64,000 nt of DNA, taken from the NCBI GenBank assembly GCA_964549505.1, contig CAZJVD010000004.1:102545-166544 (forward strand), read 5' to 3'. The translations under genes and the position numbers were made by a program. The stretch comes from an uncultured Oligoflexia bacterium (GTDB lineage: Bacteria; Bdellovibrionota; UBA1018; CAZJVD01). This document shows positions 19,955 to 32,946 of this stretch, piece after piece. The stretch's first letter is position 1; each line of letters begins with the position of its first letter. The notes under the pieces are model-generated. The model made no database searches. It was not told the origin of the DNA and saw nothing but the letters and a program-made list of their open reading frames with translations.

Positions 19955-21910
19955 GAGCTCGCGACCGGCCACAAGATCTTTGACGGCGCTCGGGTCTGCA
20001 AGGGTCGAGATATCTCCAAGACTATCGAGTTCGTTCGAGGCAATCTTGCGCAGAATTCTACGCATGATTTTACCGGAGCGTGTTTTCGGAAGAGCCGACG
20101 CCCACTGGATCACGTCCGGCGCTGCGATCGGACCGATCAGTTTGCGTACCCATAGAACGAGGTCACGCTTGAGTGCATCGCTCGGTGTCTGCCCTGTTTT
20201 GAGTGTCACGAAAACGTAGATCCCCTGGCCTTTGAGATCGTGCGGAAAACCCACGGCCGCAGCTTCAGCGACGACAGGATTTTCAACGAGTGCGCTTTCG
20301 ATCTCAGCCGTTCCGATACGATGACCGGAAACATTGATGACGTCGTCAATGCGACCGGTGATCCAGTAATACCCGTCTTCGTCGCGACGACAGCCATCAC
20401 CTGTAAAATAAGTTCCCGGAAACTGGGAAAAATACGTCGTGAAGAAACGCTGATGATCGCCGTAAACCGTTCGCATTTGGCCCGGCCACGAGTGCGTGAG
20501 GACAAGACTGCCCTCGCAAGGACCTTCGAGAGTCTTGCCGGCCGTATCAACGACCGCGGGACGAACGCCAAAGAAAGGTCGTGTGGCCGATCCGGGTTTG
20601 AGCGGAGTCGCACCGGGAAGTGGGCTGATCATGATCCCGCCCGTTTCGGTCTGCCACCACGTATCGACGATCGGACACCGCTCTTCACCCACGTTCTCGT
20701 AATACCAGTTCCAAGCTTCGGGATTGATCGGTTCGCCGACACTTCCTAAGATGCGCAGGCTTTTTCGTGAACTGCTTTTCACAAAGCTCTCGCCCTCTTT
20801 CATCAGGGCGCGAATCGCAGTGGGTGCGGTGTAGTAGATCGTCACGCCGTACTTATCGACCATCTGCCAGTGCCGCGAGGGATCCGGAAAGTTTGGAACG
20901 CCTTCAAAGATCACGCTGGTCGCACCATTGGCGAGTGGCCCGTAGACGACGTAGGAATGGCCCGTGACCCAGCCGACATCGGCCGTGCACCAGTAGATAT
21001 CGTCACGCTGAAGATCAAAAACATACTCGTGCGTGATCGAGGCATAGAGCAGGTACCCCGCTGTCGTGTGTAAGACCCCCTTTGGTTTTCCTGTCGAACC
21101 CGACGTATACAGAATGAAAAGCGGGTCCTCGGCGTCCATGACCTCAGGCGGACAGTCGGCCGAAACTTCGGCACACTCGTCGTGGTACCAGAGATCGCGT
21201 CCGGCTTTCCACGGAATCTCGGCGCCCGTACGTCGCACGACTAAGACACTCTTGATGGTCGGACAGCTTGCAAGAGCTTCGTCGACACTTTGTTTCAGGG
21301 GAATGGTCTTTCCACCCCGCAGACCTTCATCGGCTGTGATTAGAAAGGAGCTTTGGCAATCGCCGATGCGGCCGGACAGAGACGTCGCCGAAAAACCCGC
21401 AAACACGACCGAATGAACAGCGCCGATACGCGCGCAAGCCAACATGGCAAACGCCGCCTCCGGAATCATCGGCAAGTAGATCGTCACGCGATCGCCTTTT
21501 CCGACGCCGTGCTTTTTGAGAACATTGGCGAGCCTGTTTACGTGCTCGAGCGTCTCACGGTAGCTGATCGCACGACTGGGTTCGGTCGGCTGGTCCGGCT
21601 CCCAGAGAAACGCGATTTTCTCCGGAGTCGTGGCCACATGTCGATCGAGACAGTTCACGGTCACATTGAGCTTGCCACCCTCAAACCATCGGATTGAAAT
21701 GTCGTCTTTGAAACTCGTGTTGGAAACACGCTTCCACTTCGAAAACCACTCGAGCCGAGACGCCCGCTCACCCCAAAAGGCGTCGGGATTTTCTACGGAC
21801 TGTTTGTAAAGACGCTCGTAGGTCTGCGCCGTGATCGCGGTTCGCGCCAGAATCGAATCGGGTACCGGCACCGGTACAGGATACTTGCGAGGAATCGTGT
21901 TCTCAGTCAT
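19940..21910 (-). CDS. acs: Acetyl-coenzyme A synthetase
   Basis: '[11 protein letters not shown]' AMP-binding motif, 'WWQTETGG' and a C-terminal 'SGKIMRR'. The start was trimmed to 'MTENTIP'. The start overlaps the dps stop (ATGA). Confidence 0.92.
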
Positions 21911-22379
21911 CGAGCAAACTGCGGAGCATCCAGGCGGTCTTTTCATGCAGCTGAATGCGTTGTGTGAGCAGATCGGCGGACGCTTCGTCGGAAGCCTTTT
22001 CAACCGACGAGAACGCGGCTCGCGCTGTACGAACCACGGTCTCCTGCCCTTGAACGAGTTCGCGGATCATATCGCGTGCAGCAGGAACACCCTTGGGTTC
22101 CGGGATCGACGTGAGCTTTTGAAACTCACTGTAAGTCGCCGGAGCAGGGAAGCCCAATGCGCGGATGCGCTCTGCCACCAAATCGACTGCCGTCGCAAGT
22201 TCGGTGTACTGAGTTTCAAACATCAAATGCAACGTCTGAAACATCGGACCTGTGACGTTCCAGTGAAAGTTGTGCGTCTTGAGGTAGAGCGTGTACGAAT
22301 CGGCAAGAACACGCGAGAGATGATCGGCGATGATCTTTCGGTCGGACTCCGGAATTCCAATATCAATCTGAGGTTTCAT
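21903..22379 (-). CDS. dps: Dps (DNA protection during starvation) ferritin-like protein
   Basis: 158 aa. '[25 protein letters not shown]' is the Dps ferroxidase-site region. Confidence 0.88.
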
Positions 22380-22405
22380 GGTGGCTCCTTTTTTGGTGCG
22401 GCTAC

Positions 22406-22933
22406 TTAGCCTATAGCAAGTGCTTGTGCAGCTGCGTTTATCACGGAAGCGATGCGAACAGAAGACTGAGCTCCCTCATTCGAGAGTCCTGCCTTTCTCA
22501 CTTCGGCGATATGAGAGTTAACACACATCCCGCAGCCCGCGATCGCTGATACCGCAAGACAAAAGAGCTCAAAATCGACTTTTGGAATACCGGGCTTACC
22601 AATCACGTTCATTCTGAGCCGCGCCGGCATCTTGGAGAACTCCTTGTCATCGCTTAGGTGCAGGAAGCGATAGTAAACATTGTTCATTGCCATAATCGTC
22701 GCAGCGCCTTTGGCCGCCTCCACATACTCCGGGGAGAGTATCTCGACAGCATCCCCTTCGACGGCGTCGATCAAAGCTTTTGATCGTGTGGCATACGCAC
22801 ATGAAAGCGCCGTACCCCAGATCTGGATTCGGTTCAGTCCTGGAGCACCTTCCTCGGACAACACTGCCTCGAAATTGAGCCGAGTGTCGCGAGCGTAGTC
22901 TTTTAATCCGTTTTTAAGCTCGAGCGTTTTCAT
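22406..22933 (-). CDS. ahpD: Alkylhydroperoxidase AhpD-family protein
   Basis: 'GCGMCVNSH' (the CxxxxH/CxxC AhpD core) in the carboxymuconolactone decarboxylase fold. It lies immediately downstream of ahpC. Confidence 0.85.
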   Translation of the reverse strand: MKTLELKNGLKDYARDTRLNFEAVLSEEGAPGLNRIQIWGTALSCAYATRSKALIDAVEGDAVEILSPEYVEAAKGAATIMAMNNVYYRFLHLSDDKEFSKMPARLRMNVIGKPGIPKVDFELFCLAVSAIAGCGMCVNSHIAEVRKAGLSNEGAQSSVRIASVINAAAQALAIG

Positions 22934-22954
22934 GTGCGTTCTCCCTATTAACTA

Positions 22955-23494
22955 CTAGCCGACCTTGATCGTGGGTTGGCCCTTTTCCCAGTTACAGGGA
23001 CAGAGCTCGTCCGACTGAAGGCCGTCTAAGATTCTCAGAACCTCTTTGGGGTTACGTCCCACACTCAGGTCTGTGACGTACACAAACCGAATGATGCCAT
23101 CCGGATCGACAATGAACGTGGCTCGTTGAGAAACACCTTCCTGTTCGTCGATGATTCCTAACGCCATCGAGAGTTCTCGTTTGACGTCAGCAAGCATTGG
23201 AAAGGGAAGGTTGTTCAGGTCCTTGTGATTTTGGCGCCAAGCCAAGTGGACAAACTCGGAATCCACGCTTGCGGTTAAAACCTGTGCGTCTCGGTCTTTG
23301 AACTGGCCGTTCAGATCTCCGAAGCCCTTGATCTCTGTCGGACAGACGAATGTAAAGTCTTTGGGATAAAAGAAAACGACTAACCACTTACCTTTGTAGG
23401 TCGTGTTGTCGATCTCTTTGAACGCCGTTTTCTGATCGTTCGATACCGTGGCCTTTAACTTAAACTGAGGAAACTTCTTACCTACACTGAGCAT
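22955..23494 (-). CDS. ahpC: Peroxiredoxin AhpC/Prx (2-Cys)
   Basis: 'FYPKDFTFVCPTEI' peroxidatic Cys motif and a resolving Cys near the C-terminus, 'LCPCNW'. Confidence 0.9.
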   Translation of the reverse strand: MLSVGKKFPQFKLKATVSNDQKTAFKEIDNTTYKGKWLVVFFYPKDFTFVCPTEIKGFGDLNGQFKDRDAQVLTASVDSEFVHLAWRQNHKDLNNLPFPMLADVKRELSMALGIIDEQEGVSQRATFIVDPDGIIRFVYVTDLSVGRNPKEVLRILDGLQSDELCPCNWEKGQPTIKVG

Positions 23495-23584
23495 GGTCTT
23501 TTTCTCCTTTGTGCTGAAGACAGTATCGCCGGATTAGAGTCATATGTGAAATATATCGTTTTTATGATATGATAGTTTAAAGCT
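23495..23584. promoter_or_regulatory. Divergent oxyR/ahpC promoter region with probable OxyR operator
   Basis: 90-bp AT-rich intergenic region between divergent ahpC and a LysR/OxyR gene, carrying repeated ATGATAT/ATAG elements. The function is inferred from the gene arrangement. Confidence 0.4.
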
Positions 23585-24538
23585 ATGGCAACAGTCACGC
23601 AGCTCGAGTACATTGTCGCGGTCGATCGGTTTCGGCACTTCGCCCGGGCCGCGGAACACTGCCATGTCTCTCAGCCAAGCCTGAGTATGCAGATCCAGAA
23701 GGTCGAAGACGAGATTGGCGGACCGATTTTTGATCGAACCAAAAAGCCGATTTTACCGACCGATCAGGGTGCGCGTTTCATCGAACAAGCCAAGGTCGTT
23801 CTTAGGGAGCATCGCCGTCTGATCGAAGCCGCAAAGACGGGTCTTGCCGAAGTCAGTGGGCATTTTCGATTGGGAGTGATTCCGACGCTCGCTCCGTATC
23901 TTCTGCCGCTCTTTTTAGACGACTTTGCAAAGCGGTATCCCAAAGTCAGTGTTCACATCGAAGAACTCAATACCGAGACGATCGTTGGTGAGCTTTCCAA
24001 CGACCGGCTGGACGGCGGTTTGCTTGCGACGCCCTTGTCGGAGACTCGCCTGAAAGAGGAAGCTCTCTTCTATGAACCCTTTTTCGTCTATCTGCCACCG
24101 GATCATCCGCTCACGAAGAAAAAGTACATCGCAGAAGACGATCTTGATGGCTCGGAGATGTGGCTCCTTGAAGACGGACACTGTTTGCGCAATCAAGTCG
24201 TTCGCGTTTGCTCGCTGAGTAAAGGCAAAGACGTTTACAAGAACATTCACTTCGAGGGCGGGAACCTCGAAACGCTTCGGTATCTCATCCAACAGGGTAG
24301 AGGCTACACCGTCGTGCCGTATCTCTTTGCAACTCATCTCGGTGGGACCGAACGCGCGCGTTGCATTCGGCCGTTTCACGATCCGGTCCCGACTCGAGAG
24401 ATCAGTCTTGTGTACCATCGCGATCAGTGGAAGGCGCCGATTCTTCGAGCGATCGCCGAGTGTGTGAGAAAGCATGTGCCGCCCGAGCTTTTAGAGCGCG
24501 GAGATCGGAAGTCGCAAGCCGTAGTCAAGGTCAGCTGA
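23585..24538 (+). CDS. oxyR: LysR-family transcriptional regulator, OxyR-like
   Basis: N-terminal HTH 'TQLEYIVAVDRFRHFARAAEHCHVSQPSLSMQIQKVE'. Cys residues in the regulatory domain ('GHCLRN') fit redox sensing. Divergent from ahpCD. Confidence 0.75.
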   Translation: MATVTQLEYIVAVDRFRHFARAAEHCHVSQPSLSMQIQKVEDEIGGPIFDRTKKPILPTDQGARFIEQAKVVLREHRRLIEAAKTGLAEVSGHFRLGVIPTLAPYLLPLFLDDFAKRYPKVSVHIEELNTETIVGELSNDRLDGGLLATPLSETRLKEEALFYEPFFVYLPPDHPLTKKKYIAEDDLDGSEMWLLEDGHCLRNQVVRVCSLSKGKDVYKNIHFEGGNLETLRYLIQQGRGYTVVPYLFATHLGGTERARCIRPFHDPVPTREISLVYHRDQWKAPILRAIAECVRKHVPPELLERGDRKSQAVVKVS

Positions 24539-25525: not shown

Positions 25526-26278
25526 GTGTTATGCCCTTCTGCGATGCCTGGTGAAATCACCCTTATTCCAACCCCTCTGGCTGACGATCTTCCCCTCGAT
25601 CCTACGGCCCAGCGCTGTCTTGCGGGACTTGCATCGGCCGAAAAAAAGCCGCTTCTCTTAGTTGAGAACGCCAAAACGGCGCGTGCCCGTTTTGCACAGT
25701 GGGGACTCGGACGCGACTTGTTTGAACAGATGACGGAGTTCCATGAGCAGAACGAAGCGGGATTGCTCGATGAGGTCCTCTCGGCGGTGAAGTCGGGCCA
25801 GTCCGCTTTTCTTCTTAGTGACGGCGGTCTTCCTGGATTTTGTGATCCTGGTACGCGCCTCGTGAGTCGCGCTCATGAGAATCGCTTGCGCGTTCGGTGC
25901 CTGCCTGTTGCTAATGCTGTCGCTGCTGCGATGGCGCTTTCGGGTTTTGTTTCGGTGGGTGGAGGCTATATTTTTCAGGGCTTTCCTCCGGCGGCAAACG
26001 AAGAACGGGCAGCTTTTTTGCGCCGTCTTTCGAACTCGACGATTTTTCTCCCGCAGTTTTTGATGGACACGCCCTATCGCTTGGGTGCCGTTCTTGAAGA
26101 CGTCACACAGTTCTTTGACGAACGCTGGCGGGTACTTGTGGCCGCAGATCTTTTCACGCCACGGGAATGGGTGATTCGTGATCGTGCGAGTGTGGTGGCT
26201 TCCGAGTGGAAGGCGCGCGTCGCAAAGGATCCAACAGAAAAGAAGAAAGAGTTTGTTCTTGGACTCTGTCGTTTTTAG
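25526..26278 (+). CDS. Tetrapyrrole-methylase-fold SAM-dependent methyltransferase (RsmI-like)
   Basis: 'ITLIPTPLADDL' resembles the RsmI N-terminal 'LYVVATPIGNL' block. The size fits. Confidence 0.45.
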   Translation: MLCPSAMPGEITLIPTPLADDLPLDPTAQRCLAGLASAEKKPLLLVENAKTARARFAQWGLGRDLFEQMTEFHEQNEAGLLDEVLSAVKSGQSAFLLSDGGLPGFCDPGTRLVSRAHENRLRVRCLPVANAVAAAMALSGFVSVGGGYIFQGFPPAANEERAAFLRRLSNSTIFLPQFLMDTPYRLGAVLEDVTQFFDERWRVLVAADLFTPREWVIRDRASVVASEWKARVAKDPTEKKKEFVLGLCRF

Positions 26279-26978
26279 TAACGAAGATTTTATTGTTTTC
26301 GATAAGCCAGCGGGTTGGCTTTCGGTTCCTTCGATTCGAGGGGTGAACGACCCACGACCTGTCCTGGGACTTTTCCTCGAAAAGAGTTTGGGTTGTCGTG
26401 TTTATCCCGTCCATCGGGTGGATGTTTTGGTTTCAGGTCTCGTTCTTTTTGCACGGAATTCTGATGCCCAGGCTGCGGCTCATCAGTGGTGGGAGAGCGG
26501 TCAGGTCAAGAAGACCTATTGGGCGCGGACGACTTGGCCGATTGATTATGAACCAGCCGAAACGGTTTTTGAGGACCGCCTTGTCATGGGAAAGCGGCGA
26601 TCGTTTCGCGCCATCTACGGAAAACAATCTGTCACGCATGCAAAGATCCATGCGCGCGATGAGAGTGCGCGAACTGTGGACTGGACGTTAGAACCGGCTT
26701 CGGGTCGACGGCATCAGCTTCGCGTGCAGCTGGCGCTTCGTGGTTATCCGATCGTAGGCGACGAACTGTATGGCTCGAAACTCGCTTGGGAGGAGTCGAA
26801 CGGAATTGCTTTACGTGCGACGACACTCGATTTTTCAAAAATACCGGTGACGGAACGCCGTGGGTTGCCGGAACGCATCAGCGTTCCTCAGAACGAGAAA
26901 TCCATATTGACGGCTGGTTTTCCGTCGCGACCACCTTCTGAGAAAAACTCACCGGTGTCGACCGGCGCGGTTCCTTGA
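26253..26978 (+). CDS. RluA-family pseudouridine synthase
   Basis: 'VHRVDVLVSGLVLFAR' (HRLD-type catalytic Asp motif) and 'FDKPAGW'. The start is uncertain; a TTG near 26253 is assumed. Confidence 0.7.
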   Translation: MFLDSVVFSNEDFIVFDKPAGWLSVPSIRGVNDPRPVLGLFLEKSLGCRVYPVHRVDVLVSGLVLFARNSDAQAAAHQWWESGQVKKTYWARTTWPIDYEPAETVFEDRLVMGKRRSFRAIYGKQSVTHAKIHARDESARTVDWTLEPASGRRHQLRVQLALRGYPIVGDELYGSKLAWEESNGIALRATTLDFSKIPVTERRGLPERISVPQNEKSILTAGFPSRPPSEKNSPVSTGAVP

Positions 26979-27175
26979 GCGCCTTTTTTAATGGAATCCG
27001 CTTGGAGCGTGGCTCGCGGAACGACGATCTCGTAGCCCGAAGGCTGCTTGAGGGTCACAAAATCGCCGTCAAAATCCCAAATCGTGCCGTGCACTTCGAC
27101 GGTTTCGCCCATCGAACCGAACGCGCTCGCGTGGAGTAAAAAAAAGGAAAGTGTCACGAAGGTCGAACGTTTCAT
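26888..27175 (-). CDS. Small secreted hypothetical protein
   Basis: Start trimmed to 'MKRSTFVTLSFFLLHASAFG' (a signal peptide). It overlaps the convergent rluA 3' end by about 90 bp, which lowers confidence. Confidence 0.3.
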   Translation of the reverse strand: MKRSTFVTLSFFLLHASAFGSMGETVEVHGTIWDFDGDFVTLKQPSGYEIVVPRATLQADSIKKGAQGTAPVDTGEFFSEGGRDGKPAVNMDFSF

Positions 27176-27191
27176 GGTCTGTTCCCTTACG

Positions 27192-28283
27192 TTAGTTTCC
27201 TTTCCGAACTTTGGTCCCGGCAGGATGCTTGTGGTCATCGGGGGTTTTTTCGTGTCGCTTTTTTAAATCGGGCTGTGAATCTGCCTGCGAATCGGGTCGT
27301 GGAGTGAGCTGGGGCGGTCGACCTTCGTTGCTCATGAAGCGGACGCTTCGATCGCGCGCGAGGGATTCAGCGCTTGGACAAGAAGTACCGTCCTTGGAGG
27401 GACGTCCGACAACGGGCGATACGCCCGACTTTGCTCCGCGGTTTGTAAAGATCGTGAACCGTGCGTCGCCAACACAAGTCGCTCCTGACTTTGGGCTGAT
27501 GATCGATGGAGGGTCGAGATAGTCGACGTTGATGGATCCTTCTTTGTTGGTCTTCCCAGCTTTGCCGGCGTCGTCAGGCTGATTTCGGACACCTGCATGA
27601 CTGCTGTCGGACTGGAGCGGAAGCGCTTTGCCGAGACATTCTTCGACTCCGGGACAGGTGCGCTCATCGACCGGACGGCAGTAGACTGCCTCCTGAGATT
27701 TTCCGCACTTGAGATTCAAAACGCAGATTCGGTTCTTTGTTTCCTGATCGACAATCATGTCGACCGGAACGCGGGTTGACGAATCCAGAACGCATTCCTT
27801 AGCGTGCGCAGGTACGATTACGGAAAGCGACGCGAGCATCACAGTCCAAAACAGGGTGGTGAGTTTTATTGCGGGTGATCGACGCATGTGTTCCGAGAAC
27901 TCCTTCTCGATCAATGCTTTGATCTGATCGCGTGCAGCTCGAAAGCGCGCCAGACGTTCGGCTTCGCTGCGACCATGTGTGGGATCGGCGATTGGATGAT
28001 GAAGAAGATGAGGTGTTTTTATCGTGGTTGGACAGACCTGTTCATCGCAGAGTGTGACGACGTGATCAAAGCTTTCCCGATCGAAGCCGTCGACCGACTT
28101 GGAGGTTTGTCCACGTCCGTCGATGCCTATCTCTTCGAGCACGCGAAGTGCTAGAGGGTTGACATGCGAAGCAACGGCGCCGGCACTTTCAATCTCGACG
28201 GAGTCGTCGAGTAGGGCACGCGCTAGTCCTTCGGCCATTTGGCTTCGCGACGAATTTGCATAACAGAGGAAAAGAACCCGCAT
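27192..28283 (-). CDS. ArsC/low-molecular-weight phosphotyrosine phosphatase domain fused in frame to a signal-peptide-bearing Cys-rich domain
   Basis: N-terminal 'RVLFLCYANSSRSQMAEG' is the CX5R P-loop of LMW-PTP/thioredoxin-coupled ArsC. At residue 133 an internal Met opens 'MRRSPAIKLTTLFWTVMLASLSVIVPAHA', a canonical signal peptide, followed by a domain with 12 or more Cys. Confidence 0.6.
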   Translation of the reverse strand: MRVLFLCYANSSRSQMAEGLARALLDDSVEIESAGAVASHVNPLALRVLEEIGIDGRGQTSKSVDGFDRESFDHVVTLCDEQVCPTTIKTPHLLHHPIADPTHGRSEAERLARFRAARDQIKALIEKEFSEHMRRSPAIKLTTLFWTVMLASLSVIVPAHAKECVLDSSTRVPVDMIVDQETKNRICVLNLKCGKSQEAVYCRPVDERTCPGVEECLGKALPLQSDSSHAGVRNQPDDAGKAGKTNKEGSINVDYLDPPSIISPKSGATCVGDARFTIFTNRGAKSGVSPVVGRPSKDGTSCPSAESLARDRSVRFMSNEGRPPQLTPRPDSQADSQPDLKKRHEKTPDDHKHPAGTKVRKGN

Positions 28284-28331
28284 AGATAAGGTTCTAGTTT
28301 AATGCAGACTTTTCGAAAAGGCACGCCCCCG

Positions 28332-30944
28332 TCAAAACAGAGCGAGCAAACTGCTTGCCCACTTCTGATAAAAGCGGTCCTCAATGGTGACCGGTGTACC
28401 GGCCACGACTTTGCGGAGCGTCTCCTTCGCGTTAGACGGATCCACCGTGCTGGAAGCCGTGAGCGATCGCAATGCCAAGAAGAACGAAGCTTTGATTTCG
28501 AACTTCGCCTTGTTTGCTTCAGCCATGAACTGCAGCACGTTGATCTTGCTGAGCAAGAACGATTGAATCAGCTGGTCTTCGGGGTTCGAAAACGCTGTCA
28601 CTGTCATCAGACCTTGATTCGCGGTTTCTTGACTCTCGCCAATGGCGACCGTGGCCCAGCGAAGCAGAGCGAACTCCGAATCCGAAGGGTCAGACGTTAG
28701 CTTTTCAATCATGGTTCGCGCATTCGTATAATCCCCTTTGAGGACGAGGGCACGGACGAGCATCTGCTGTGCCTGTGGAAAATCAGGTACGGAAGCCACG
28801 CACTGCCGAAGCAAGCTCTCTGCCTCGTGCGCAGCGAGATCGCCGGTCGCATGATCGAAGTTTAGCTTGGCTCCAACCCAGCGTTTGAACGCACGCGCAG
28901 CTTTTCCTACCGACGATTCAGAATCGTCCGATGACGCTTGCCGGGTGGCATCCACGCAAAGGCTTGGGTCCGAGGTAAACGCGCTCGACCATCGGGCATA
29001 CGCGTCCGCATTGTTGCCGGAAGCGAACTCGATAATACCGAGCATGATCAACGACGGTGCGATCATGTTCGCGCCGACCTGGCCCGATTGTGCCGATGGC
29101 CCCGACACTCTGGCAAGCTCGATGGTTCGTTCCAGTGATCGGCGGGCTTCTACCAAGTTGTGTAACTGAAAGAGTAAGTTGCCGCGCTGAAATGAATAAG
29201 CAATCAACTGCTCCGCCGAAGAACGCGACTCATTGAAAAGCGACCAATACTGATCGAGATCTTCGAGTGCGCTCTGAAGATTTCCCATCTTACGATTGGC
29301 CTGCGAGCGCAGCCAGTAAAGGTTCGCATTTTCTGGATCCTGTCTGAGTGCGGACGAGAAGTAATTGATGGCGCTCGCCACGTCGCCGTTTGCCATGACA
29401 AAACTTCCGCGTGCGGCAGCAGCCTCGGCATCCATGGGTCTCAGCTTGAACTCGCCATTCGACACTGCTGTCGCGAGCACACGTCCCTGGGGGCGCAGAA
29501 CACGATAGCGGTCATAACTGTCGTTGAACAGGCGCTCCACCGCTCCGGCTCCTTTCGCCATGACAGCGGCGGCTGTAAGGTGGGCTTGTGCGCTGTCATA
29601 GTCCCCTCTCAGCGCGTAACAAAGAGCTTGTCCCACGTCACCGTCCGGACTCGTAGGGTCCACTCGACATACCGACGCATAATCTTGGCAAGCCAAGTCC
29701 TCGCGATAGAGGCCCAGAAGAACATCACTGCGGGCTTTGAAAATCTTTGCGATCGGATCAAAGTCGTTTTCAATGGCTGTTGTGAAAGCATCGGCCGCCT
29801 CCATTAAAAGGCCCTTCGCTGCGAACACGGTTCCTCGCAAGTAGTAAAGCTCGGGGTCTTTCGACTGCGTTGAGGCCGACAGACGTGAAAGAATCGCGTG
29901 GGCTTCATCCATCTTTTCGAGCGCAATCAACGCCCGTGCGAGGCCTTGTTGGCAGGCGGCTGAAGCTTGGGCTTCAGCTGAGAGGCCTTCGAAAGTATCG
30001 ACGACGAGACCCGGGCTCGAAAAACGCGACAGTGCGACGAAGCGACTGACTTCGATCGCGCCGGCGTTCGTACCCACCCGATTTGCGGTGACGATGTCAC
30101 GTTCGAGTTGGATCATACTGCCGGCCGTTGCGATCCGTGCTGGCATCAGGGCTGCGACTTCTCTTCGTAGGGACTCGCACTCTGCCGGACGGTATTCGCA
30201 ATAGAGATGGAATCCTTCTTCGGCGGCGAGGTCGTTGCGAATTTTATACTGATTTTTGACCGAGTGCTGCCACTGAACCGAAAGACCTGGAACACTGTTC
30301 GCGAACTGTTTCAAGTAACGATCTGCTTCTGTAAATCGTCCCAGCGCTATCAGAGACTCTTCGAGTTCGCTGAGTGCGCGATCTCGTAATGGGTTGGTCA
30401 TCTGGGCGAATGTTGCTTCGAGATCCGTGACCGCGTCTGCATACTGATGGCTCTCGGATCGGCATATTCCTCTCAGGAGACGAACCTGGGCAGCTCTCGG
30501 GTGAGCCCACGAAACCTCGAGCGCGGAAGTGAACGCACCGACAGCCTTATGCCATTCGGGTGAGAGGTGCTTGAACTTGTCAGCCATGTAATGGAGGCCC
30601 ATGGCCTCATAAAACTCGAAACTTCCCGCTGGATGCTCTCGAGAAATCGCAGCCTCCTCGCCGCGGTACTCTAGGAGCTCTGCGGTCCTGAGACGCTGCA
30701 GCTCTTTTGAAACACGTCCTTCCAAGTCGCCCGCGACTGCATCAGGGCCCGGAGGATAAGTCTCAGAATCCTCTCGACTGGGTCTCTGAATAGGAGGGCA
30801 CATCTCTTGAGGCGATCCATCAGCACCGTGCCCGCCGCCCGCTACTCCGCCCACGCCGCCGCCAGCCGCGCCACCACCGCCCGCACCGCCTTGCGCGAAT
30901 GTCAGCGTCGGAAACAAAAGAACAACCCATAGAACTGATTTCAT
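28332..30944 (-). CDS. Secreted TPR-repeat protein with Gly-rich N-terminal linker
   Basis: 870 aa. Signal peptide 'VLLFPTLTFAQ', then a GGAGGGGAAGGGVGG tract, then many TPR-like helical repeats (recurring 'A...Y..LG/RG' patterns). Confidence 0.6.
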   Translation of the reverse strand: MKSVLWVVLLFPTLTFAQGGAGGGGAAGGGVGGVAGGGHGADGSPQEMCPPIQRPSREDSETYPPGPDAVAGDLEGRVSKELQRLRTAELLEYRGEEAAISREHPAGSFEFYEAMGLHYMADKFKHLSPEWHKAVGAFTSALEVSWAHPRAAQVRLLRGICRSESHQYADAVTDLEATFAQMTNPLRDRALSELEESLIALGRFTEADRYLKQFANSVPGLSVQWQHSVKNQYKIRNDLAAEEGFHLYCEYRPAECESLRREVAALMPARIATAGSMIQLERDIVTANRVGTNAGAIEVSRFVALSRFSSPGLVVDTFEGLSAEAQASAACQQGLARALIALEKMDEAHAILSRLSASTQSKDPELYYLRGTVFAAKGLLMEAADAFTTAIENDFDPIAKIFKARSDVLLGLYREDLACQDYASVCRVDPTSPDGDVGQALCYALRGDYDSAQAHLTAAAVMAKGAGAVERLFNDSYDRYRVLRPQGRVLATAVSNGEFKLRPMDAEAAAARGSFVMANGDVASAINYFSSALRQDPENANLYWLRSQANRKMGNLQSALEDLDQYWSLFNESRSSAEQLIAYSFQRGNLLFQLHNLVEARRSLERTIELARVSGPSAQSGQVGANMIAPSLIMLGIIEFASGNNADAYARWSSAFTSDPSLCVDATRQASSDDSESSVGKAARAFKRWVGAKLNFDHATGDLAAHEAESLLRQCVASVPDFPQAQQMLVRALVLKGDYTNARTMIEKLTSDPSDSEFALLRWATVAIGESQETANQGLMTVTAFSNPEDQLIQSFLLSKINVLQFMAEANKAKFEIKASFFLALRSLTASSTVDPSNAKETLRKVVAGTPVTIEDRFYQKWASSLLALF

Positions 30945-32173
30945 GGTCGACCGCCGCTACGTGGTGGAGTGACTCCCCCGCGACCGCGAGAAATTCTTTC
31001 CTCGAGCGAAGACGGAAGATTCGGACGGGTGTCCCGTCCTGGGCGCGAGCGCCCCGCCGAGGCTCCAGATGTCTCGTAAGTCCTGGACGCATTGATACGA
31101 TTCTCTAGATTTCCCGTCGAACGAGCTAAAGGATCGGGCCGAGGATCGCCGCCATTACCGCCCCCATCAGGATCGACCGGATAGTAACCCTGACTGCCGT
31201 TTTTCTTCGGTGGCTCGGGTTTCGTTTCGTCGTCTTTGTTCGGAGCGCAGTAACGAATGACCTCTTCTTTAAGTTTTCGATTGGCATTGTCGAGGTCCTC
31301 CTGCTTTTGCTCGCTGCTCTCGATCGTTTCCTGCTTCTTTTCCAACTCTGTTTTCTGGTCTTCTAACTTCTTGTCTCTGGATTCGATTTCCTTCTTCTGC
31401 TCGTCGATGGTCTTGTCCTTTTTTTCTGACTCAGCTCGGAGCTTTTCGTTTTCGCGGACAAGTTCTTCAAACCTTTGCGTGTCATTCGGTTTTTCGGTGA
31501 CCTTATCGGCGACGATATTCGAAGCGATATCGACCACAAATCTGACAATCGTTCTGCCGATCGATGAAGCGGGTGCCATGCCTAATTGATCCGTTTTGCT
31601 CATTCGAGTCGGTGGCTGCATTTTGGCTTCCATATCGAAGCGGGGTGCGTAGCGGTCCACGAGACCTTGAGCTTTGCCTTGTTTCAAGACCTCGACTTTG
31701 GCCAGCAGTGATCCCATCATGTCTTGAGTCATCGGCTGGCCGATTCCGAAACGGTCTTGCATCACGCGACCGAGGTTGGGATTGATCGATCCAAGTCCGG
31801 GCGCCATCATATGAGTGATTTCCGGAATTCCAAGACGTTGACCCCGTTGCATAAGCGCCATACTCGGGAGAACAATGGCCTGATTCGCGCCAAACTGAAT
31901 GGCATTTTGCAGCGTGCGATTTCGAAACTCGCTCGGATTTCGTGTTAGAGGAAAACGTTCAGCACCGTCGAGAATCTGCGTGCCTAAGCGTAGGGCTTCG
32001 ATAGGGTCGAAAAACTTTTGATGGTTGCCGCCCTCGACGTCCACTTCTTCTGTGTAAGAAAGAGATCCGGTGATCTCGTCCGCGACACCTCGGATCCAGG
32101 TGTCCTGACTGTGTACGGGTGCCGCTGCCAGTAGAAAAGTGATCGAAAACAAAAATGAAAAGCCGACATTCAT
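30941..32173 (-). CDS. Secreted protein with central coiled-coil (KE-rich) segment
   Basis: Signal peptide 'LLAAAPVHSQ' and a central 'EKLRAESEKKDKTIDEQKKEIESRDKKLEDQKTELEKKQETIESSEQKQEDL' heptad-like region. Its stop overlaps the TPR gene start (ATGA). Confidence 0.5.
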   Translation of the reverse strand: MNVGFSFLFSITFLLAAAPVHSQDTWIRGVADEITGSLSYTEEVDVEGGNHQKFFDPIEALRLGTQILDGAERFPLTRNPSEFRNRTLQNAIQFGANQAIVLPSMALMQRGQRLGIPEITHMMAPGLGSINPNLGRVMQDRFGIGQPMTQDMMGSLLAKVEVLKQGKAQGLVDRYAPRFDMEAKMQPPTRMSKTDQLGMAPASSIGRTIVRFVVDIASNIVADKVTEKPNDTQRFEELVRENEKLRAESEKKDKTIDEQKKEIESRDKKLEDQKTELEKKQETIESSEQKQEDLDNANRKLKEEVIRYCAPNKDDETKPEPPKKNGSQGYYPVDPDGGGNGGDPRPDPLARSTGNLENRINASRTYETSGASAGRSRPGRDTRPNLPSSLEERISRGRGGVTPPRSGGRP

Positions 32174-32318: not shown

Positions 32319-32408
32319 GGAAAGGTGGCCGAGCGGCTGAAGGCGCACGCTTGGAAAGCGTGTTATGGGTAACACCATACGAGGGTTCGAATCCCTCCCT
32401 TTCCGCCA
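32319..32408 (+). tRNA. tRNA-Ser (anticodon GGA)
   Basis: Acceptor GGAAAGG/CCTTTCC, anticodon arm CACGC-TTGGAAA-GCGTG, a long variable arm and an encoded CCA. Confidence 0.75.
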
Positions 32409-32441: not shown

Positions 32442-32732
32442 TTAACCAGCCGCGCTTCTCTTCTTCTGAAACACGGCCTTTTCAAGTTTGGAAAGGCGGC
32501 CTTCCATTGATGACTCTGTAGCCCCAGAAGCGGCATCCCGAAGCACTTTATTAATCAAGGTCTGGTATTTCGTTCCGTTGTTCTCTGCCATTTCGCGAAA
32601 CCGCATGAGCACATCTTCCGGAATGACAATAGAGATCCGATGCCCAATTTTAGCTGGCTCGAAATCGTCTTCCGAAAGAATATCCTTCTTTCCATACTTG
32701 ATATCTGCTTTCTCAGCCTTTTTGATACTCAT
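32442..32732 (-). CDS. Ribbon-helix-helix (BrnA/CopG-like) putative antitoxin
   Basis: The C-terminal 'ISIVIPEDVLMRFREMAENNGTKYQTLINKVLRD' matches the RHH/BrnA-type signature. The start was trimmed to 'MSIKKAEK'. Confidence 0.45.
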   Translation of the reverse strand: MSIKKAEKADIKYGKKDILSEDDFEPAKIGHRISIVIPEDVLMRFREMAENNGTKYQTLINKVLRDAASGATESSMEGRLSKLEKAVFQKKRSAAG

Positions 32733-32946
32733 TCCAAACCTCCAAGAGATACGTTTTCCGGTTCGCCAAGTACTTCTGAATGCGATTAAGGTCTCGTTCC
32801 GTAAAGCCGCGAGAGAACAAACAGGCCAATGTTTCGATCTCAAATTTCGCCTCGTAATCAGGAGCCAGGGCATGAACATGAGGCGGTTGATGATCCTTCG
32901 GATAAACATAAATTTTAATGTTCCCGATGTAGATCACCGCTGGCAT
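32713..32946 (-). CDS. DUF4160-like small protein (putative toxin partner)
   Basis: 77 aa. 'IKIYVYPKDHQPPHVHA' is the hallmark block of DUF4160. It overlaps the downstream RHH gene by 20 bp. Confidence 0.5.
   Translation of the reverse strand: MPAVIYIGNIKIYVYPKDHQPPHVHALAPDYEAKFEIETLACLFSRGFTERDLNRIQKYLANRKTYLLEVWNEYQKG

Follow-up and report, generated by a model that had tools for sequence, protein, structure and literature searches.

A single uninterrupted open reading frame (ORF) of 363 codons (27192..28283, minus strand) carries, head to tail, a complete ArsC-type domain and a secreted protein, here called X, which retains its own ATG, a Shine-Dalgarno-like site and a full signal peptide of the cleavable type. 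The explanation that we favour, at a probability of about 70%, is that two genes that are separate elsewhere have been joined without an intervening stop codon, in this lineage only, the stop codon of ArsC having been lost. The fused form is a singleton among ~15 billion proteins, and every relative of either half that we inspected stands alone. The initial annotation had listed a recent loss of the stop codon as one of three explanations; with the halves found only separately elsewhere and the fused form found once, stop loss is the best fit, while the word "recent" is one to which no date can be attached. Throughout, the window is the whole stretch of 64,000 nucleotides that was analysed.

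One reading frame and its public gene call

The following features describe the ORF and its first part:
27192..28283, minus strand: fused ORF, 363 aa, from ATG to TAA; the same protein is recorded from M16 as P0001
27888..28283, minus strand: complete ArsC/LMW-phosphatase domain, residues 1-132 (Pfam LMWPc, NCBIfam TIGR02691 and alignment)
28242..28265, minus strand: P-loop, C7-X5-R13-S (sequence and subfamily alignment)
28047..28049, minus strand: C79 
28032..28034, minus strand: C84, with D100-P101 further on

No stop codon separates the ArsC domain from residue 133, as had been read from the sequence at the outset, and neither half of the ORF contains an internal stop or a frameshift. The whole ORF has 11 cysteines. 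Eight of them lie in the 231 aa after M133, where the initial annotation had counted at least 12. An exact protein look-up found the 363-aa form absent from the record and P0001 present. P0001 is the public gene call for this ORF; it is 348 aa long, starts at M16 and has lost Cys7, the catalytic cysteine of the P-loop. The 15 missing residues are encoded at 28239..28283 (minus strand), and the ATG at 28283 restores the full ArsC domain. In its public form, a two-part ORF is mislabelled as one phosphatase-family protein, minus the catalytic cysteine.

The ArsC half

The Pfam LMWPc profile matches residues 3-125 over positions 1-140 of 144 (E 1e-14, 55.4 bits, cut-off 23.2), and the NCBIfam ArsC models span residues 3-131 (E 3.7e-27 for TIGR02691). 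Together with the intact catalytic residues, these matches uphold the early view that residues 1-132 form a full LMW-PTP/ArsC domain. The NCBIfam equivalog cut-offs are missed by both members of the TIGR02691/TIGR02689 pair (95.1 bits vs 174.3 and 86.2 vs 157.6, respectively); judged by its sequence, this half is ArsC-like at the level of the family and not an equivalog.

The CX5R loop noticed earlier proved to be C7-YANSS-R13-S14, of which C7, N10, S11, R13 and S14 do not vary across the aligned subfamily. When aligned with 19 homologues, the window ArsC keeps all 35 invariant subfamily positions, among them the P-loop, C79, C84 and D100-P101. It is off consensus at 5 of the 21 near-invariant positions, mostly by conservative changes plus W96H, and is the second most divergent sequence in the subfamily sample. 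Homologues are abundant (n = 7947), and the best 120 of these 7947 are all stand-alone proteins of 123-171 aa with at most 60% identity. In B. subtilis ArsC (1JL3, 139 residues), the counterpart of the tail KEFSE is KEFAE at residues 132-136. The domain therefore reaches its natural C-terminus, which would place the original stop codon no more than a few codons from the internal ATG.

Among the genes called within ~10 kb on either side, we found no Pfam families indicative of an ars operon (arsR, arsB/acr3). The ArsC half itself reads as a cytoplasmic, thiol-dependent reductase of the ArsC type, with arsenate reduction as its predicted activity.

The secreted half

The second part of the ORF comprises:
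27885..27887, minus strand: internal ATG (M133), putative ancestral start of X; the starts of P0122, P0124 and P0125 correspond to it
27801..27887, minus strand: signal peptide (signal anchor in the fused form), residues 133-161, assigned from hydropathy, charges and the cleavage points of relatives
27195..27800, minus strand: mature X, residues 162-363, 34-39% identical to three relatives, with 8 Cys
27195..27323, minus strand: disordered Pro/charged tail of X

M133, whose ATG lies at 27885..27887, opens MRRSPAIKLTTLFWTVMLASLSVIVPAHA, a segment with a Kyte-Doolittle value of 1.83 over 19 residues and the protein's sole strongly hydrophobic one. Inspection of hydropathy and charge reveals all the parts of a Sec-type (SPase I) signal peptide: the n-region MRRSPAIK with a charge of +3, the 17-aa h-region LTTLFWTVMLASLSVIV (27813..27863) and the c-region PAHA, with predicted cleavage before K162. 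This signal peptide is internal in the 363-aa ORF and would become N-terminal if M133 were used; in the three relatives of X it starts at residue 1. Their predicted cleavage sites (AFA/SDEC, AFG/SEEC and LAA/TEEC, the slash marking the cut) align with AHA/KEC of the window, just before a conserved EC-x-LD motif. Both the three regions and the register of the relatives' sites agree with the signal peptide and AHA site that had been proposed from residue 133.

After the AHA site, X has 202 aa and 8 Cys. Mature X appears to consist of a beta-rich domain followed by the disordered Pro/charged tail; its AF2 model is weak (pLDDT 57). The C-terminal 43 residues are rich in proline and charge. Searches of Pfam, NCBIfam and the PDB with X returned no match, and a word-indexed search of 5.8 billion clusters returned only the window protein itself (P0001). 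A HMMER scan of 1.84 billion representatives found one true relative, P0122 (E 2.9e-25), and a search with P0122 brought in P0124 and P0125, making three relatives among ~15 billion proteins. Each of the three is a stand-alone protein (212-222 aa) with its own N-terminal signal peptide. X shares with this orphan family 34-39% identity over ~175-200 residues and all 8 invariant cysteines. The relatives differ from X in being encoded by stand-alone genes, in having one extra Cys pair and in having Gly/Ser-rich tails instead of a Pro/charged one. The two extra cysteines (in VVCGAIGR and AMSCSKD) align with 27360..27440 of the window (minus strand), and both are missing in X; their joint absence fits a disulfide pair in an exported protein. 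X and its relatives make up an uncharacterised family of four members with 8 invariant cysteines.

An 893-aa repeat protein (P0123, E 3.3e-5) was rejected as a relative because its match is driven by repeats. Residues ~252-268 of X (27480..27530, minus strand), LDPPSIISPKSGATCVG, resemble the nine-fold PPSLVSPANGATI repeat of P0123, a likeness that probably reflects a common domain-start motif rather than homology.

The junction and the internal ATG

One further feature lies within the end of the ArsC coding region:
27900..27905, minus strand: AAGGAG, a Shine-Dalgarno-like hexamer within ArsC codons K127-E128, 12 nt 5' of the internal ATG

The duplex between AAGGAG and the anti-Shine-Dalgarno sequence has an energy of -8.3 kcal/mol. 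Of 191 internal in-frame ATGs, only the top 2.6% pair this well, and the duplex is stronger than that at 81% of the 31 annotated starts in the window. The folding energy at the internal ATG (-11.9 kcal/mol) is close to the mean for starts (-11.8) and differs from that for internal ATGs (-14.7). The hexamer is 12 nt from the ATG, compared with 6-9 nt at strong starts in the window, and the conserved K-E residues in the tail of ArsC account for part of it. Overall, the internal ATG looks like a start site, and initiation there is predicted. The early suggestion that the internal Met might serve as an independent start is consistent with the Shine-Dalgarno-like site, the low, start-like structure and the starts of the relatives, and is compatible with stop loss; initiation itself stands as a prediction. 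A promoter scan detected no sigma-70-like site between the genes, and terminator-like matches were at chance level.

The junction, GAGTTCTCGGAACACATGCG, is without homopolymer or repeat. One substitution in any of codons 126-128, 130 or 131 would be enough to bring back a stop. The two alternative frames run into a stop 8 or 30 codons beyond the ATG, so that a small indel in an overlapping gene pair could also have yielded the ORF.

Genomic neighbourhood and the loci of relatives

The neighbours on the same strand are:
26888..27175, minus strand: Y, a 95-aa secreted orphan, 16 nt past the stop of X
28332..30944, minus strand: 870-aa TPR protein with a signal peptide, upstream, ending 48 nt before the ArsC ATG
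30941..32173, minus strand: 410-aa orphan, also with a signal peptide, which opens the same-strand block and overlaps the TPR gene by 4 nt

Together with the fused ORF, these genes make up a four-gene block (26888..32173, minus strand) with predicted secreted products bearing signal-peptide-like N-termini: the 410-aa coiled-coil/low-complexity orphan, the TPR protein with its Gly-rich N-terminal stretch, ArsC-X and Y. The proteins of the block are singletons at 90%-identity clustering. X fits this block of secreted proteins; ArsC is the odd one out.

In neither of the two loci of X relatives that we read (L002 and L003) is there an ArsC upstream. In L003 (950 bp, 40% GC), each of the three frames of the 78 nt 5' of the X relative is interrupted by stops, and a TGA immediately precedes the ATG. 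In L002 (3.5 kb, 49% GC), the upstream gene encodes an unrelated 222-aa protein and ends 62 nt before the called start. P0122 is preceded, at a distance of 2 nt, by a called gene fragment of 31 aa; in L003, which is 82% identical, the corresponding region is non-coding. The ORF that immediately follows the stop of the X relative in L003 is weakly similar to Y (pairwise E 2e-5), and the pairing of X with Y therefore recurs. At 715..720 of L003, that stop abuts the next ATG (TAA ATG). With genes around X packed this tightly, one lost stop codon could fuse neighbours.

Neither two scans of genome contigs, one with the TPR protein and one with the X alignment, run on species representatives that exclude this genome and those of the X relatives, nor a metagenome scan with the X alignment yielded an orthologous locus. 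As no true orthologue of the locus was found, we infer rather than observe the ancestral ArsC stop, from sequence comparison. A metagenome scan with the full ORF gave a single match (L004), which was discarded: it is an unrelated 137-aa LMW phosphatase beside infA, matched via MRVLFLCY.

Several other features of the surroundings were recorded. A tRNA-Ser(GGA) gene (32319..32408, plus strand) directly adjoins the 410-aa gene, and on its other side lies a pair of small DUF4160/BrnA-antitoxin-like genes (32442..32946, minus strand), a possible toxin-antitoxin module at the tRNA. About 3 kb from the ArsC ORF, a divergent LysR-type regulator stands beside AhpC/Redoxin, CMD (AhpD-like) and ferritin/Dps-like genes (21903..24538), an arrangement that looks like an oxidative-stress cluster. 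The TP_methylase-like and RluA-type pseudouridine synthase ORFs (25526..26978, plus strand) overlap by ~100 nt if each is read from its first start codon; the RluA-type ORF, called as 239 aa in locus L001, probably begins further downstream. There is no rRNA in the window.

Proposed origin of the fusion

We propose that the ArsC stop codon once lay ~0-3 codons from the start of X, or overlapped that start in another frame, and was lost through a point change or a small indel. X would still be producible by initiation at M133. The read-through protein, for its part, would insert into the membrane with ArsC inside and X outside, the orientation expected from the RR and K that precede the helix. 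A cut by signal peptidase I after AHA would then free mature X, and ArsC would keep a membrane tail of 29 residues. By either route, ArsC and X are probably both still made. The fusion itself appears to be near-neutral, and the two halves do not seem to be functionally integrated. If real, the case would be a clean snapshot of the beginnings of a gene fusion, in which two tightly packed genes have merged, possibly without harm thanks to an intact internal start and signal peptide. It changes nothing that is known about arsenate reductases or redox relays, and there is no sign of a new kind of enzyme.

Alternative explanations

The same features could also describe a working natural polyprotein, in which the ribosome continues from ArsC into X, the internal signal peptide directs the chain to SecYEG, and signal peptidase I splits exported X from tethered ArsC. 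We consider this unlikely. Were it true, ArsC-X would be a newly arisen case of one gene giving two proteins, similar to fbcH (see below), caught at its origin.

A less probable explanation is that the ORF results from a consensus or assembly error, with ArsC and X set apart in the true genome by a stop or by a frame difference of 1 nt. Only one metagenome-derived lineage represents this genome, and the junction would lend itself to such an error, given that one indel could make the ORF out of frames that stop 8 or 30 codons past the ATG and that a stop is one substitution away at five junction-side codons. However, the identical protein is present in a 197-kb NCBI contig, a 79.8-kb ENA k139 contig and a Logan contig, although these three public contigs are probably from one sample, so that the base calls are not confirmed at the strain level. 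Over 21,047 bp, the ENA contig, which comes from a different assembler, matches the window at 100% identity. In addition, GAGTTCTCGGAACACATGCG offers neither homopolymer nor repeat as a source of error, and GC content is flat across the junction.

The fusion might also be real but harmful or silent, if the read-through product misfolds or is degraded and a single partner, either X made from M133 or ArsC, does the work; this would be a first step towards the pseudogenisation of one partner. A singleton without conservation is what such a process might leave, and its ArsC lies outside an ars operon and is the second most divergent of the sample, with 5 of 21 near-invariant positions off consensus, W96H included. 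Against it, ArsC retains every one of its 35 invariant positions, including the Cys triad and the DP motif, X retains all 8 cysteines, and both halves are clear of internal stops and frameshifts. We give this scenario little credence.

Similarly improbable, in our view, is a selected bitopic fusion, in which a cytoplasmic ArsC is tethered by an uncleaved signal anchor to an extracytoplasmic disulfide-rich domain, the two acting together as a membrane-localised arsenate reductase or sensor, or as a redox relay. The distribution of charge on either side of the helix points to an N-in, C-out topology, both domains appear intact, and functional fusions of ArsC to membrane proteins are known, namely Acr3-ArsC and AqpS-ArsC (PMC6205960). 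Here, unlike in known ArsC fusions, the partner is not related to arsenic, and ars genes are absent within ~10 kb. The AXA motif still lines up with the points at which the stand-alone relatives are predicted to be cut, and the architecture occurs once among ~15 billion proteins. Cooperation of ArsC and X across the membrane is much less likely than a plain polyprotein. The trans-membrane redox relay put forward in the initial annotation was rejected as unsupported: the only helix is free of cysteine and cannot carry electrons as DsbD/CcdA do, no thioredoxin-like domain was found with Pfam or NCBIfam, nor any DsbD or CcdA match, and the architecture is conserved nowhere. Finally, the idea of ArsC as a mobile element or a chimera was rejected, there being no flanking repeats and GC content being uniform.

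Comparison with known systems

Relays of the DsbD/CcdA/ScsB type have a multi-helix core with paired membrane cysteines and thioredoxin-like periplasmic domains. ArsC-X has one hydrophobic segment with no cysteine in it, and no match to such a domain in Pfam or NCBIfam. A parallel is the fbcH gene of Bradyrhizobium, which Thony-Meyer et al. are said to have described in 1991 as one gene for a cytochrome b/c1 precursor that is cut at an internal signal peptide into two proteins. ArsC-X resembles it in having an internal Sec-type signal peptide between a cytoplasmic or membrane-side first part and an exported second part, an arrangement by which one ORF could plausibly yield two proteins. The fbcH fusion is reportedly conserved and its cleavage experimentally shown, whereas in ArsC-X cleavage is a prediction and the fusion is a singleton.

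As an enzyme, the ArsC half has well-known counterparts. The thioredoxin-coupled reductases of S. aureus pI258, B. subtilis (1JL3) and Synechocystis (2L17/2L19) share with it the CX5R(S) P-loop, the two loop cysteines (C79/C84) and the DP motif. The Synechocystis and B. subtilis structures match residues 1-132 with E-values of 1e-19 to 1e-20, in an alignment that spans the entire fold and stops no more than 3 residues short of the C-terminus. In B. subtilis ArsC, its two cysteines take the positions of C79 and C84, the window loop being 2 residues shorter; C79 and C84 also match the second and third cysteines of the disulfide cascade (Cys82 and Cys89 of pI258 ArsC). The window protein differs from pI258-type ArsC in scoring below the equivalog cut-offs, in W96H, in the lack of an ars operon and in having no stop codon of its own.

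ArsC has entered into fusions before. Acr3-ArsC of M. tuberculosis, AqpS-ArsC of Salinispora, ArsR-ArsC and ArsN-ArsC have been described; in these, the partner handles arsenic and the fusions recur in several genomes (PMC6205960). The partner in ArsC-X, by contrast, is an orphan secreted protein, and the fusion has been seen once. What ArsC-X shares with the known fusions is their basic design, a small ArsC joined to the product of a neighbouring gene, which is sometimes a membrane protein (PMC6205960).
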